A stretch of DNA of 64,000 bases. It comes from Patescibacteria group bacterium. Its GTDB lineage: Bacteria > Patescibacteriota > Minisyncoccia > Portnoybacterales > UBA2143. The stretch is taken from the NCBI GenBank assembly GCA_018830295.1, contig JAHJSM010000002.1, forward strand, positions 115,131 through 179,130, read 5' to 3'. The notes beneath the pieces are model-generated. The model saw nothing but the letters and a program-made list of their open reading frames with translations, was not told the origin of the DNA and made no database searches. Position numbers and translations under genes: made by a program. Positions 2,269 to 63,268 of this stretch are shown piece by piece (the first letter of the stretch is position 1; each line of letters starts with the position of its first letter).

Positions 2269-3690
2269 ATGCCACATAAACAAAAAATTAGGGTAAGAAT
2301 CGCGCCTAGTCCGACGGGGACTTTGCATCTTGGGACGGCGCGAACGGCGCTTTTTAATTATCTTTTCGCTAAAAAAAATGGCGGCGATTTTATTTTGCGG
2401 ATTGAAGATACTGATTTGGCGCGTTCGGACAGGAAATACGAAAAAGATATTTTGGAAAATTTAGAATGGCTTGGCTTAAAGTGGGATGAGGAACCTTGTC
2501 GGCAAAGCGAGCGGAAGGAAATTTATCAGAAATATATTAAAAAACTTTTTGATTCGGGCCAGGTGTTTTGGTGCGGTTGTAGCAAAGAGGAGTTAGAGGA
2601 AGAAAAGAAAGGGCAGATGGAGAGAAAAGAATCGCCACGGCATACCTGCCAGAAAAAAACAAAAGAGGGGGAGGGGATTATCAGATTTCATTGTCCAGAT
2701 AAGAAAATCTTTTTTGACGATATGATTAAGGGTCGGGTGGAGTTTGATTGCGGTTTGCTGGGAGATATCGGCATCGCGCGGGACGAGAAAACGCCCTTGT
2801 ATAATTTGGCGGTTGTGATTGATGATATTGAAATGAAGATTAGCCATGTTATCAGAGGCGAAGACCATATTTCCAATACCCCAAAACAGATGCTCCTTCT
2901 TGAAGCGTTCGGGGCTATTCCTCCGCGATACGCCCATATTCCTTTGACGATGGGACCGGACAAAGCCAAGTTGAGCAAGAGGCATGGCGCGACCGCAATT
3001 GAGGATTACAAAAAAATGGGATATTTGCCGAAAGCGCTCACGAATTTTATGGCTTTTCTTGGCTGGCATCCGGGAAGCGAAAAAGAGATTTTTTCTTTAG
3101 AAGAATTGGCGCGAGAATTTTCAATGGAGAAAATGAACAAATCAAACGCCATTTTTGATATTGAAAAATTGAATTGGTTCAACGGGCAATATATCCGCCA
3201 AATGGATTTGGATGAGTTGACTAAAAAATGCTTGCCGTATTTAAAAGAAGCGGGGTTAATTCGGGGGCTGCCCCCGTTGCGGGGGCAGCCCCCATCGTAT
3301 CTTAAAAAGGTGATTGCTTTGGAGCGCGAGCGGCTGAAGAAGTTATCGGAGATAGGGGAGTTGACGGAATTTTTCTTTTTGGACAAATTAGATTACGCGC
3401 CAGAATTGCTGATTTGGAAGAAATTGTCTTTAAAAGAGGTGAAAAATAATTTAGAAATTTTGGAAAAAGTTCTTTCAAAAACAGACAAATTTGACCAAAA
3501 ATCGCTCCAGGATACAATCACTCCCTTAACCGAAAAATACGGCGTAGGCGACCTCCTGTGGCCTCTGCGGGTGGCGATTACGGGCAGAAAAGCATCCCCA
3601 GGGCCTTATGAAGTAATGGAGGTTTTGGGGAAGGAGAGGGTGTTGGAAAGGATAAAAGAGGCGATTGAGAAGATAAAAGAATATGTCTAA
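2269..3690 (+). CDS. gltX: glutamyl-tRNA synthetase; contains an in-frame GC-rich palindromic repeat at 3263-3293
   Basis: HIGH-class motif PSPTGTLHLGTAR and KMSKS-like KLSKRHG; class I Glu/Gln-RS architecture. Confidence 0.9.
   Translation: MPHKQKIRVRIAPSPTGTLHLGTARTALFNYLFAKKNGGDFILRIEDTDLARSDRKYEKDILENLEWLGLKWDEEPCRQSERKEIYQKYIKKLFDSGQVFWCGCSKEELEEEKKGQMERKESPRHTCQKKTKEGEGIIRFHCPDKKIFFDDMIKGRVEFDCGLLGDIGIARDEKTPLYNLAVVIDDIEMKISHVIRGEDHISNTPKQMLLLEAFGAIPPRYAHIPLTMGPDKAKLSKRHGATAIEDYKKMGYLPKALTNFMAFLGWHPGSEKEIFSLEELAREFSMEKMNKSNAIFDIEKLNWFNGQYIRQMDLDELTKKCLPYLKEAGLIRGLPPLRGQPPSYLKKVIALERERLKKLSEIGELTEFFFLDKLDYAPELLIWKKLSLKEVKNNLEILEKVLSKTDKFDQKSLQDTITPLTEKYGVGDLLWPLRVAITGRKASPGPYEVMEVLGKERVLERIKEAIEKIKEYV
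3263..3293. repeat. GC-rich palindromic element GGGGGCTGCCCCC-GTTGC-GGGGGCAGCCCCC (inside gltX, in frame)
   Basis: 13-bp perfect inverted arms; same element, inverted loop, at 63238-63268. Confidence 0.8.
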
Positions 3691-4993
3691 AAACTCTTCG
3701 TTAAACTCGTTTTGTCAATATGCTTGGCTGGTTTTGCTTTTGGCTTTTTTTGTTTTCCCTTTGGCGGGGCGGGGGAGCGTGGTAGATGAGTTGAATCGAC
3801 AGATTTTGGAGCAGGAGAATAAGAGGGCGGAATTAGAAAAGAAGGCGGCAGAGTATCAGGCGGCGATTAACCAGAAGCAAGGGGAAATTAATAGTTTAAA
3901 AAATCAAATATATATTTTTAACGCGCGGATAGGGAAATTGGAAACAGAAATGGAAATAACAGAGGACGATATCAGCCAAACGGAACTGGAAATTTTGCGG
4001 CTAGAATACGGGATTGAGCAGACGACGGGGGATATCGCTTCACAGAAGGACAATATTGGGAAAATTATCCAATCAATTGCCGAACAGGATCAGGTGAGTC
4101 AGATGGAAATGATTTTGCAAAGCGATGATTTTTCCGATTTTTACAGCCAGATTGTTTATCTTGAAAATCTACAAAGCGGCGTTCAGGAAAAAGTTGACCG
4201 TCTTAAATTACTGAAATATAATTTAAATAGAGACAAAGAAGATAAAGAAGAAAAAAAAGAGCGGCTGGAAGGGCTTAAAAAGCAATTAACCGACCAAAAA
4301 TGGTCTTTAAGCAGCCAAAAGAAAAGTAGGGAAGCGCTTTTAACAAGCACGCGCGGCGAAGAAAGCAAATATCAGCAACTGCTTGCTAATATTGAAGCGC
4401 AAAAGAAATCATTGTTGGGCGACATTAATCTTTTGCGTCAGAAGAAGGCGGAAGAACTGGCGCGTCTGAAGGAACTGCAAGAAAAGCCACCCGCGCAATA
4501 TTGGGCCTCGTTGAATTGGTATTACAAACAAGATGACGCGAGATGGACGAATACAACGATCGGGATTAGCAATTCCACATTAGGTGATTATGGCTGCGCT
4601 ATTACTTCAGTCGCGATGGTTATGACCGAAAATGGCTCCGCTATTACGCCGAAACAATTAGCCAAAGAGTCAATTTTTGCTTGGGATTTAATTTATTGGC
4701 CTCAAAAGTGGGGGAGTATTACTTGCGTTAATTGTCCGCCGCCCCATACGAGTTCTTTTGATTGGTTTCGTTTAGACCGAGAATTGGGCGCCGGCAATCC
4801 TGTCATTATTTTTGTCAGGGCTGTCGACAGGCATGCGGGACACTATGTTGTTGTTCACCATAAAACAAATGATGGGCGATATGTTGTTCATGACCCGCTC
4901 TTTGGCGCTAATATTTATTTGGACTCAACAAGGGTCTATCTATCTGTTTTATATGGCGTAACAACCATTAGTCAGATGGTGATATATCATTAA
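3683..4993 (+). CDS. secreted coiled-coil protein with C-terminal papain-like (C39-like/CHAP-like) cysteine peptidase domain (PcsB-like architecture)
   Basis: N-terminal signal/TM, about 250 aa heptad-rich coiled coil, C-terminal GDYGCAITSVAMV ... HYVVVHH motif block. Confidence 0.55.
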   Translation: MSKNSSLNSFCQYAWLVLLLAFFVFPLAGRGSVVDELNRQILEQENKRAELEKKAAEYQAAINQKQGEINSLKNQIYIFNARIGKLETEMEITEDDISQTELEILRLEYGIEQTTGDIASQKDNIGKIIQSIAEQDQVSQMEMILQSDDFSDFYSQIVYLENLQSGVQEKVDRLKLLKYNLNRDKEDKEEKKERLEGLKKQLTDQKWSLSSQKKSREALLTSTRGEESKYQQLLANIEAQKKSLLGDINLLRQKKAEELARLKELQEKPPAQYWASLNWYYKQDDARWTNTTIGISNSTLGDYGCAITSVAMVMTENGSAITPKQLAKESIFAWDLIYWPQKWGSITCVNCPPPHTSSFDWFRLDRELGAGNPVIIFVRAVDRHAGHYVVVHHKTNDGRYVVHDPLFGANIYLDSTRVYLSVLYGVTTISQMVIYH

Positions 4994-5008
4994 TTAAAAT
5001 TCAAAATT

Positions 5009-5404
5009 ATGCGTTATTTTATTATTATTCTATTTATATTCATCTTTTCCTTTGGAACCGCTTCGGCGGGGGACAAGGAACTGTCGGGTTGGGCTGATTC
5101 AAATTACCAAAAAATAAGTAATTACGCGAAACATATTTTTGATTTTGTGAAACAGAAAACGGATAGCATTCCGCGCGAGATAGACACTAAAGCAGAGGAG
5201 GTTTTGGAAGACGCGCAAGAAAAAATAACTAAAAAGGCGGAGCAAGCGACAGAAGAGATAAAGGAAAAAATAAAAGAAAGAATTAAAAGCAAAATTATAA
5301 ACACCTTTAATCCCCTGAAAACTAAAATTCAGCAGGGGAGCGCTCTTATTAGAGAGCAAGTCGGCCAAGCAAAAGATTATTTATTTAATTGGCTTGAGAA
5401 ATAA
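5009..5404 (+). CDS. hypothetical secreted coiled-coil protein
   Basis: signal peptide-like N-terminus, charged helical remainder. Confidence 0.4.
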   Translation: MRYFIIILFIFIFSFGTASAGDKELSGWADSNYQKISNYAKHIFDFVKQKTDSIPREIDTKAEEVLEDAQEKITKKAEQATEEIKEKIKERIKSKIINTFNPLKTKIQQGSALIREQVGQAKDYLFNWLEK

Positions 5405-5462
5405 AAATATATTCGGTCTAAAAGTAATAGTAGGGGTAGGGGAGGTTATCCACAAAACGAAT

Positions 5463-62045: not shown

Positions 62046-62930
62046 ATGAAAGAAAAAGAAAGAAATCCGGTCAGCGAATATGCGGAAAAAATACGAAAAA
62101 TTCCCGTCTTGAGCAAAAAGGAAGAACTGGCATTGGCGAAAAAAACCGCGAGAGGGAATAAAGAAGCGAAAAAGAAAATGATTGAATCAAATTTAAAATT
62201 GGCGTTTAGTATCGCGTCAAGATACACAAGAAATTGGCGAAATGAGGTTTTGGACATCTTGGATTTAATCCAAGAGGGAAACACTGGTCTCTTTAGAGCC
62301 GTTGAAAAATTTGACTGGCGAAAAGGATACAAATTTTCAGTTTATGCCTCGTGGTGGATTAAAGCGGCAATATTAAAATTGCTCTGCGAAAAATCAAGAA
62401 CTATTAGAGTGCAAACCCACATCATTCTCGGCGTAAATCGTTATATCGAGGAGGTAAACGAAATACTCGCCAAAGAACATCGGACACCCACAAACCAAGA
62501 GATAGCCGAAAAAATAGGGCTTTCTGTCCAAACATTGCTTAAATATCTAAAATTGTTTCGAGAAGCTAACACAATTTCTATTGATTCTCCTCTTGGAACG
62601 GTAAGCGACCGTTGGGACACAAACACATTAAATGATGTTATCCCAGACAAAGAAACGCCCAACCCGGAAGAATTTGTCCGAATAAATCAACTTAATGAAA
62701 AAATCAGGAAAATGCTTTTATTTCTTACGCCAAGAGAAGAAAAAGTTTTAAGGATGCGTTATGGGATTGGAGAAAAATGGGATCACACACTCCGAGAAGT
62801 GGGAAATTTATTTGAAGTAACTCGCGAAGATATTAGGCAAATTGAAGTAAAAGCGTTAAGAAAACTCAATAAAAAATTTGTTGTCGGAACATTTAGAGGG
62901 CAAAATTTTGTTCTAAATGATTATTTATAA
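62046..62930 (+). CDS. sigma-70 family RNA polymerase sigma factor (second, shorter paralog)
   Basis: region 2 [37 protein letters not shown], regions 3 and 4 present; SD AAAGGAGAG. Confidence 0.8.
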
Positions 62931-62977
62931 GAAAAGGAGGTTGCAAAAAGCAATCTCCTTTTATAATTTACACCATT

Positions 62978-63226
62978 CTACAACTTCCCTTCTGCTTCTT
63001 TTTCCATTTTATCCAACCGGGTGTAATAGTCAGGGAACTCGTTTAAATGCGCTAAAGCGATTTTACCAGTCATGATCGCGTCATCGTTTGTCACATTTGT
63101 CGCGGGGCTAACTAACCCGTGCTCTAATTCAACATCCATCCCCATCCTAAACTGTTCAAGATCAAACTTACTCCAATCAATTCCCAACGCCTCCCCGACT
63201 TCTTTCGCCTTTTCATTTGTAAACAT
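62978..63226 (-). CDS. hypothetical conserved small protein (MDVELEHG motif)
   Basis: ORF only. Confidence 0.35.
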   Translation of the reverse strand: MFTNEKAKEVGEALGIDWSKFDLEQFRMGMDVELEHGLVSPATNVTNDDAIMTGKIALAHLNEFPDYYTRLDKMEKEAEGKL

Positions 63227-63237
63227 ATATTTAATTA

Positions 63238-63268
63238 GGGGGCTGCCCCCGCAACGGGGGCAGCCCCC
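63238..63268. repeat. GC-rich palindromic element GGGGGCTGCCCCC-GCAAC-GGGGGCAGCCCCC (intergenic)
   Basis: same as 3263-3293 with reverse-complemented loop. Confidence 0.8.

Follow-up and report, generated by a model that had tools for sequence, protein, structure and literature searches.

Hairpin copies in the window

The 64 kb stretch of DNA analysed here (the window, 37.4% GC) comes from a member of the Patescibacteria, or candidate phyla radiation (CPR), and carries ordinary chromosomal genes, among them those for FtsW, MurG, glutamyl-tRNA synthetase (GltX), CTP synthase, an S41 peptidase and a sigma factor. Its nearest GltX homologues are labelled Patescibacteria or Candidatus Portnoybacteria; a phage origin was rejected, the genes being chromosomal and a megablast comparison of 50 kb of the window with 50,697 phage records returning no match. 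Distributed through the window are nine full copies of a GC-rich hairpin and one solo arm. Each full copy is built of two 13-nt arms, GGGG[A/G]C[A/T]G[T/C]CCCC, around a spacer of 5–9 nt, giving an element of 31–35 bp. These hairpins almost certainly constitute a dispersed palindromic repeat family resembling repetitive extragenic palindromic (REP) sequences, and we put at roughly 60% the fuller statement that they are repeats of the REP/REPIN type (REPIN denoting REP doublets that form hairpins) which are, or once were, moved by an enzyme of the REP-associated tyrosine transposase (RAYT) type.

An initial annotation of this DNA had described inverted GC-rich arms with a 5–9 nt gap in an AT-rich genome, and direct reading of the sequence bears this architecture out, while reducing the 'ten or more copies' then reported to nine full and one half. 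Most of the coordinates given at that time stand, and two were displaced by about 10 nt (50772–50802 becomes 50782–50812, and 59612–59642 becomes 59621–59651). The full copies start at 3263, 13777, 24868, 42409, 47308, 50782, 57511, 59621 and 63238, by which they are named below, and the solo arm at 45040. Together with any tags and stem extensions, they are as follows:

3263–3293: GC-subtype hairpin, GGGGGCTGCCCCC-GTTGC-GGGGGCAGCCCCC, in frame inside gltX (2269–3690, plus strand)
13777–13811: AT-subtype hairpin with a 9-nt spacer and 17-nt perfect arms (−32.8 kcal/mol); intergenic, 20 nt past the stop of a glycosyltransferase gene (13832–14857, minus strand) and 37 nt before the start of a LytR-like gene (12720–13739, minus strand)
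24863–24905: hybrid hairpin, GGGGACAGTCCCC-CGTCTTC-GGGGGCTGCCCCC, core 24868–24900 with AAGAT/ATCTT stem extensions; in frame in a nucleotidyltransferase-like open reading frame (ORF; 24009–25010, minus strand), encoding GAAPEDGGLSPS
42409–42447, plus strand: AT-subtype hairpin with the tag GTCATAGT (42440–42447), intergenic
45040–45059, plus strand: solo arm GGGACAGTCCC (bare arm 45040–45050), then tag-like TGCCATAGT; 21 nt past the stop of gene 45072–46880 (minus strand)
47308–47345, plus strand: hybrid hairpin, GGGAACAGTCCCC-CGTCCGC-GGGGGCTGCCCCC, core 47308–47340, with a GTCAT tag; intergenic between 47416–47886 (minus strand) and 46874–47218 (minus strand)
50782–50820, plus strand: AT-subtype hairpin (50782–50812) with the tag GTCATAGT; intergenic, 51 nt past the stop of a DUF4238 gene (50864–51826, minus strand) and 41 nt before the start of 50183–50740 (minus strand)
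57506–57546: AT-subtype hairpin, stem lengthened to 19–20 bp (−36.1 kcal/mol), with TTTTCC directly after the stem on the minus strand, as in a terminator; downstream of a DUF3800 gene (57710–58189, minus strand)
59616–59656: hairpin in a 72-nt context held in common with 57506–57546; 11 nt past the stop of a RadC-like gene (59663–60382, minus strand)
63238–63276, plus strand: GC-subtype hairpin (63238–63268) with tag-like GTCTTAGT; 11 nt upstream of the start of an 82-aa ORF (62978–63226, minus strand)

The arm motif occurs 18 times in the window, against a mean of 0.22 and a maximum of 2 in motif scans of 50 shuffled sequences, and a looser 11-mer scan of the window disclosed no extra hairpin copies. 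The elements are 78% GC against 37% in the window, with predicted folding energies of −22 to −37 kcal/mol. Copies are spaced 2–11 kb apart with genes in between, an arrangement that excludes a CRISPR array, and the density is about one arm per 3.5 kb. The notion that the pattern reflects chance, low-complexity sequence or an assembly artefact, to which we attach next to no probability, can point to a public partial GltX, apparently of this same organism (P0010, 337 aa, 100% identical), that ends near the hairpin position, at about residue 332; here a public assembly was cut at the hairpin of this same gltX, and such hairpins seem to break short-read assemblies. It is refuted by the recovery of the same copies in independent NCBI, ENA and JGI assemblies, and both the excess of arms over expectation and the maintenance of the reading frame inside genes stand against it as well.

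The arm, GGGG-R-C-W-G-Y-CCCC, is a near-perfect 13-nt palindrome that is asymmetric solely at its centre base. Centre bases of paired arms are complementary in all 37 clade doublets (37/37), and hence the arms are truly inverted. Within arms, position 5 pairs with position 9 in 69 of 73 (A-T 43, G-C 26; the rest G-T 3 and A-C 1), and in 13 of the 37 doublets an AT arm is combined with a GC arm, so that the long hairpin acquires an A-C mismatch and a G-T pair. Because pairing within the arm is kept though these 13 doublets mix subtypes, each arm behaves like a small palindrome of its own, two of which, inverted, make up the doublet; this is the layout of REPs and REPINs. The solo arm at 45040 probably arose from a doublet, through deletion between two near-identical arms. 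Strand asymmetry between G-U and A-C pairs was tried as an indicator of RNA function and set aside on a 4-to-2 split among the copies compared.

A short tag, (C)GTCAT, follows the hairpin in 23 clade copies and is absent at 3263, 13777, 24868, 57511 and 59621. It lies on the strand opposite to the flanking genes in 22 of the 23 tagged copies, the remaining one being ambiguous and none reversed. The correspondence noted earlier between the first and last copies of the window is exact, 3263–3293 being the reverse complement of 63238–63268; insertion in both orientations, as then proposed from it, holds for the plus strand and fails relative to the flanking genes, with respect to which these two copies are equally oriented. 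Copies 57511 and 59621 do share their surroundings as had been claimed, not as about 65 identical bp but as 72 nt of common context at 96% identity (57480–57551 and 59590–59661). On the minus strand at 50740–50820 the tag, read as ATGAC, supplies the ATG of a 26-codon ORF (MTGTVPAAGTVPLGIKKDLKGILNNL, then a stop) that runs through hairpin 50782 and whose TGA overlaps the ATG of 50183–50740; this was read by hand and may be a coincidence.

Both intergenic and intragenic placement, reported previously, are found. Seven of the nine copies are intergenic, between genes of the same direction and 11–218 nt past a stop codon, ahead of the next gene; they are placed after the stop codon and before the next promoter. 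At 42409, for example, the order on the coding (minus) strand is stop codon, ACTATGAC, hairpin, a CGCC/GGCG terminator with T6, the promoter TGGTATAAT and a start at 42354, so that a separate canonical terminator and promoter come after the GC hairpin. The other two copies are intragenic and in frame, in gltX and the nucleotidyltransferase-like ORF, and both occupy variable loops. Reading frames of the element are stop-free in 53 of 54 cases and encode peptides rich in Gly, Pro, Ser and Ala; the gltX copy at 3263–3293 encodes RGLPPLRGQPP (residues about 332–342).

Such positions bring in the main rival to movement by a RAYT, namely that these are functional RNA 3′-end hairpins (terminators, attenuators or exonuclease blocks), each part of its gene cassette and spread solely through homologous recombination and the exchange of cassettes, with no transposase. 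We regard this as unlikely. The location of seven of nine copies between stop codon and next promoter and the uniform orientation of 22 of 23 tagged copies to their genes, with none opposite, accord with it, as do copies 57511 and 59621, which pass a terminator-like scan on the coding strand (19-bp stem, TTTTCC). Yet seven of nine copies lack a T-run past the stem (the next bases being TTGG, TTAG, GGTG and so on), the copy at 42409 would be redundant ahead of its canonical terminator, and two copies lie within genes that are essential or conserved, in which termination would do damage. Most copies are not canonical terminators.

Polymorphism, breadth across lineages and the transposase link

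Comparison of orthologous loci, which the initial annotation had recommended as a check on presence and absence, revealed polymorphism both in gltX and in the nucleotidyltransferase-like gene. Clade GltX proteins range in length from 455 to 552 aa on account of inserts at a few hot spots. The site occupied in the window lies after KKCLPYL and has four states among relatives:

Window, L241 and L242 (GltX 97% identity): GGGGGCTGCCCCC-GTTGC-GGGGGCAGCCCCC, GC subtype
L243 (GltX 83% identity to the window): GGGGACTGTCCCC-GCGAC-AGGGACAGTCCCC, AT subtype
L245 (GltX 81% identity to the window): decayed copy
L244 (GltX 85% identity) and proteins P0006–P0008: hairpin absent

A second gltX site is empty in the window, L241 and L244; there L273 has a 42-nt in-frame insert containing AAGGACAGTCCCTTAGATACCAAGGGACTGTCCCT, and the palindrome that L275 has at this place is longer, at about 59 nt. 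L273, though syntenic with window 1–14 kb, has its hairpins elsewhere, between the AsnS-like and S11 genes, at the gltX end and upstream of L27. Fresh in-frame copies at differing gltX sites from lineage to lineage tell against RNA 3′-end hairpins travelling on cassettes, for cassette exchange cannot yield them. In the AlphaFold model of the window GltX (mean predicted local distance difference test score, pLDDT, 87.8) the inserted residues form coil between helices 314–327 and 343–355, with pLDDT below 50 at 335–339. Of the nucleotidyltransferase-like homologues, the one of 98% identity has the copy and P0243 and P0244 (74% identity) are without it, and the insertion site is a hypervariable loop across the family. 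Orthologues of 74–85% protein identity variously have no element, a different subtype at that site, or copies in other places, and the hairpin family is hence polymorphic between related genomes. The alternative envisaged earlier was of copies invariant among relatives, coincident only with terminators, or confined to this region; instead they are polymorphic, two of them lie in genes, and others occur on further contigs of the clade.

Other in-frame inserts occupy the same GltX loops in P0009, P0079, P0082, P0085 and P0117, and the nucleotidyltransferase-like homologues P0242, P0252, P0266 and P0278 bear further ones, again in the same loops. The insert peptides (..APRNDK.., CHCERAERA.., SEESQRSFGLRPQDD..) read as though other families of GC-rich palindromic repeats had been translated, and several such families seem, from sequence, to colonise CPR proteins.

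Beyond these loci, a metagenome scan for the tagged form of the hairpin located 16 loci, mostly on low-GC contigs, whose gene segments are 84–100% identical to window 35–58 kb and stand in a differing order. CPR-clade contigs (the 16 tagged-form loci with L079 and L246) contain 25 distinct doublet sequences. The commonest is the 33-mer GGGGACAGTCCCCCGTCCGCGGGGGCTGCCCCC, that is GGGGACAGTCCCC-CGTCCGC-GGGGGCTGCCCCC, followed by GTCAT; counting either strand, the exact 33-mer is found in nine places, mostly with different flanks. Orthologues of copy 47308 (L246:1010 and L259:3463) differ in arm 1, and copy 57511 is also present in its orthologue at L259:12887. After the gene ending at 40634, L249 and L257 bear ACTATGAC and a hairpin, and at precisely this place the window has a canonical terminator; this replacement, and the reshuffling of cassettes between strains, are further points in favour of an RNA 3′-end function.

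Set against L246–L261 (Ga0180732, Ga0180009 and others), window 35–58 kb consists of reordered segments with different neighbours, and L249 is without window 41389–42367. Restriction-modification, DUF4238, DUF3800, Bro-N and AntA genes all figure in this accessory region, the segments of which form a shuffled mosaic. This raises the prospect that the hairpins are recombination sites for gene-cassette exchange in an accessory island, comparable to the folded single-strand attC sites of integrons: tagged copies stand right after stop codons and border the segments reordered in the Ga0180732 and Ga0180009 contigs, and their palindromes are imperfect, their flank is constant and their orientation uniform. 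We consider it very unlikely. The attC core sites (RYYYAAC/GTTRRRY) are lacking from the flanks, which read YYYWW and GTCAT, and the sole tyrosine recombinase (integrase-family) gene of the window, at 5543–6487, looks like a housekeeping XerC/D and is conserved in synteny beside gltX in all relatives; on these two grounds an integron attC was rejected. In addition, the homology breakpoints found fall outside the hairpin, and copies occur also in core regions and within genes. Quite improbable, too, is a version in which the hairpins would be exchange sites of gene-plus-hairpin cassettes (stop codon, ATGAC, hairpin) in the accessory and defence island, through attC-like recognition of folded single-stranded DNA superimposed on a cross-phyla REP core, with no resident RAYT.

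The core of the element extends far outside the CPR. A doublet scan covering one genome per species returned at least 120 places; among the matches listed, the doublet-bearing genomes are labelled as roughly 15–20 major lineages, in which the 13-mer is multi-copy, including Actinomycetota, Planctomycetota, Omnitrophota, Patescibacteria, Bacillota and several proteobacterial groups, and doublets often number several within 8 kb, sometimes in tandem arrays. In a control on viral contigs, the generalised doublet GGGGNNWNNCCCC retrieved many kinds of arm, with ACWGT in 2 of 123 and TCWGA in 7, and in IMG/VR the exact doublet was found on one contig only and the tagged CPR form on none. Because these viral controls nearly lack it, the core is a feature of cellular genomes, in which it is frequent, and not the product of compositional or general sequence bias. 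The proposal that GGGGACWGTCCCC is universally special was dropped after the viral control, its dominance being only relative to the GCWGC alternative.

This breadth bears on another interpretation, under which each 13-bp palindrome is the duplex binding site of a dimeric protein (a DNA-uptake signal, nucleoid protein or regulator) and the hairpin a by-product. Palindromy within the arm is indeed kept better than pairing between arms, the density of arms can be cited for it, and there are intragenic copies, as with uptake signals. However, a 13-mer present in roughly 15–20 labelled lineages among the listed matches is a misfit for a species-specific signal, a simple site has no need of centre bases that are complementary in 37 of 37 doublets, and a candidate binding protein was not identified. 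We consider this interpretation very unlikely as well.

In the Planctomycetota metagenome-assembled genome (MAG) at L057, a minus-strand ORF (446–1084) is bracketed by five 13-mers, three of them on one side and two on the other; they lie within about 110 nt, and the locus has none elsewhere. The ORF matches Pfam Y1_Tnp (E = 8e-15), and among NCBIfam models REP-associated tyrosine transposase fits it best, with a score of 67.5 bits that falls short of that model's cut-off of 80. The independent contigs L262 and L264 encode P0123, which is 85% identical to the L057 protein; upstream of its gene there are four arms, and another two follow the stop codon directly, and the gene has a precomputed Pfam Y1_Tnp match. 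At all three loci GGGGAC[A/T]GTCCCC doublets lie within about 150 nt on either side of the ORF and nowhere else. A flanking 31-mer in L262, GGGGACAGTCCCCGCCGCGGGGACTGTCCCC, is the exact reverse complement of a CPR copy (L257:10323) and differs from window copy 50782 by one base; the occurrence of this same 31-mer beside a transposase gene is a further argument against RNA 3′-end hairpins spread by recombination. More distant homologues of the transposase (57–77% identity) are flanked by other inverted ends, beginning GGGGACAT. Four of 120 motif-bearing loci among the listed matches hold an ORF matching the L057 Y1 transposase (jackhmmer), three of them also matching Pfam Y1_Tnp, a number well above what a single-copy gene would lead one to expect. 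In L010, also a Planctomycetota MAG, a Y1_Tnp domain (1031–2095) shares a stop-to-stop frame with a FabZ fragment about 1 kb from two 13-mer doublets, as if a RAYT-like gene had inserted into fabZ or beside it.

Other features of the window

The accessory region contains further repeated sequences. The 3′ end of a small ORF (ending in LKLEKEYLRNRFREDKGE and a stop) recurs at 38907–38999, 42448–42540, 48678–48747 and 50106–50199 with 86–98% identity; only the copy at 42.5 kb has a full ORF, of about 77 aa, and the repeats look like remnants of cassette rearrangement. A second dispersed hairpin family, AAAAAAGGTYAGRCCTTTCGAG, 23 nt, then CTCAGAAGGTCTGACCTTTTTT, is framed by an A-run and a T-run in the manner of a terminator and occurs at 38820–38886, 48591–48657 and about 57355–57414, and also in L246. 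A terminator-plus-promoter module, comprising a CGCC-loop-GGCG hairpin, T6 and then TGGTATAAT or TGATATAAT, is located at 34725–34765, 36022–36059, 38779–38811, 41335–41381, 42368–42404 and 48547–48587; at 42368–42404 a distance of 7 nt separates the end of its −10 box from the ATG, pointing to a transcript without a leader. Unrelated GC-rich palindromes lie at 37977–38011 (AAGAGGACACCCCTCGC/GCGAGGGGTGTCCTCTT) and 48748–48780 (GCGCGCGCCCGAAGCC/GGCTTCGGGAGTGGGC).

Two Rfam families exceed their gathering scores, LOOT RNA at 47906–48037 on the minus strand (70.9 bits) and DUF3800-V RNA at 57595–57692 on the plus strand (66.9 bits). The latter lies some 55 nt from hairpin 57511, beside the DUF3800 gene (57710–58189, minus strand) but on the other strand. 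Near 8 kb the GC skew changes sign together with the direction of the genes, from plus-strand genes and positive skew on the left (1–8300) to minus-strand genes and negative skew on the right (8300–64000); a XerC/D-like gene is present at 5543–6487. The change of sign would fit a replication terminus region, or may reflect only coding-strand bias.

Interpretation and comparison with known systems

The initial annotation likened the hairpins to REP elements, and this likeness has gained in substance: the copies are polymorphic, are not bound to terminators, have varied flanks within the clade, and share a core that flanks a RAYT-like Y1 gene in Planctomycetota-type contigs. We propose that the arm corresponds to a REP unit and the inverted doublet to a REPIN, which would fold as one very stable hairpin, and that the main subfamily carries a fixed flank in the order hairpin-(C)GTCAT. 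Spread, which is probably ongoing, would take place as single-stranded DNA hairpins handled in trans by an IS200-like Y1 HUH transposase, that is, a RAYT encoded elsewhere in the genome. That a RAYT mobilised them in this organism we infer from family resemblance. Copies would persist where they do no harm. Between a stop codon and the next promoter, a hairpin in the transcript may act at the RNA level to protect or insulate the mRNA 3′ end. Copies would be tolerated in frame in exposed protein loops too, persistence there being possible because the frames are nearly stop-free and the peptides rich in Gly, Pro and Ser.

Several observations weigh against movement by a RAYT. Neither the window nor 222,078 bases of clade sequence holds a Y1_Tnp-like ORF, as judged by jackhmmer with RAYT seeds against all ORFs of at least 50 aa and by Pfam scans of 30 ORFs in 24–61 kb of the window, and 20 kb of L273 likewise holds no Y1_Tnp ORF; the absence of a RAYT-type transposase from the window, remarked on at the outset, thus extends to 222 kb of the clade. 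CPR genomes are small, and an orphan repeat population is possible. A clean pair of filled and empty intergenic sites was sought between strains, and only replacements of whole segments or cassettes were found; the strain differences look like whole-cassette replacement, which recombination alone could produce. The hybrid subfamily probably derives from few events, so the covariation within arms amounts to few independent changes. Uniform orientation with respect to the genes is as compatible with a function in RNA as with strand-specific transposition. Finally, the arrangement of the tag fits neither the published GTAG families nor the four published CGTC families of REPs (Di Nocera et al. 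2013, PMC3733652).

We class this as a new family of the REP/REPIN kind, seen here for the first time in CPR bacteria. A literature search found no description of REP/REPIN-type repeats in bacteria of this radiation, and searches of the literature for the exact 13-mers and 11-mers retrieved only unrelated eukaryotic primers. Its presence deserves attention in that very small genomes are not where one would expect selfish or domesticated repeats to abound, and despite small genome size copies lie in frame in an essential aminoacyl-tRNA synthetase. REPs are usually described as species- or genus-specific. The 13-nt core, and once the same 31-mer, spans CPR genomes of 35% GC and Planctomycetota-type contigs of 69% GC; if one RAYT/REPIN lineage truly extends over many phyla, it would call into question a strictly vertical, species-specific view, and a defined enzyme (P0121 or P0123) together with a defined 31-nt substrate (GGGGACAGTCCCCGCGGCGGGGACTGTCCCC) would make the question testable. 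On the practical side, the hairpins break assemblies, as with P0010, and inflate or alter CPR protein predictions, as with the 455 to 552 aa of GltX.

Among known systems, no Rfam family reaches its gathering threshold at any of the hairpins, and permissive scans gave only chance-level matches. Miniature inverted-repeat transposable elements (MITEs) were rejected, the flanks of 39 doublets (from the clade and related loci) having no direct duplication and the element being little more than its hairpin. With intrinsic terminators the family has in common a GC-rich stem-loop just past the stop codon, which 57511 and 59621 carry to the point of passing a terminator-like scan, and A-runs and T-runs frame this doublet in Omnitrophota and other phyla; it departs from them in the seven window copies without a T-run, the copy ahead of a separate canonical terminator and the two copies inside genes.

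Rickettsia palindromic elements (RPEs) offer a parallel in their in-frame insertion into coding genes, essential ones included, by which a peptide is added in a tolerated loop. The likeness is one of behaviour only, there being no sequence relation and most of the present copies being intergenic. RPE-4 and RPE-6 have been counted as CGTC REPs, and of RPE-1 it is said only that it is a longer palindromic insertion (PMC3733652). REPs as a whole fall into GTAG- and CGTC-tagged superfamilies; CGTC REPs are without a dedicated transposase, and intragenic in-frame REPs have been reported, some in tRNA synthetase genes (PMC3733652). The main CPR subfamily resembles the CGTC superfamily, for which no dedicated transposase is known, in reading CCC[CGTC]AT after arm 2 and CCC[CGTC]CGC after arm 1 and in its intragenic in-frame copies, tRNA synthetase genes among their hosts. 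It differs in that the published CGTC families have 8–9 bp stems starting with two A/T pairs, 4–5 nt loops and a CCA tail (PMC3733652), whereas here the stems are 13 bp and GGGG-initiated, the order is the mirror one of CCAA-hairpin-CGTC, and several copies are untagged.

The closest comparison is with REPs and REPINs in general. The present family differs from them in its unit, a near-perfect 13-nt palindrome with a core common to many phyla, in its host, a small-genome CPR bacterium, and in the place of the RAYT gene, which shares a genome with the repeats in L057, L262 and L264 and is absent from the window and from 222 kb of the clade. It agrees with them in its short, GC-rich palindromic units, dispersed in many copies that for the most part lie shortly downstream of a gene, in having inverted doublets that fold into a larger hairpin and a master sequence that recurs in many different flanks, and in the Y1 transposase gene that, in Planctomycetota-type contigs, is bracketed by the same repeats.

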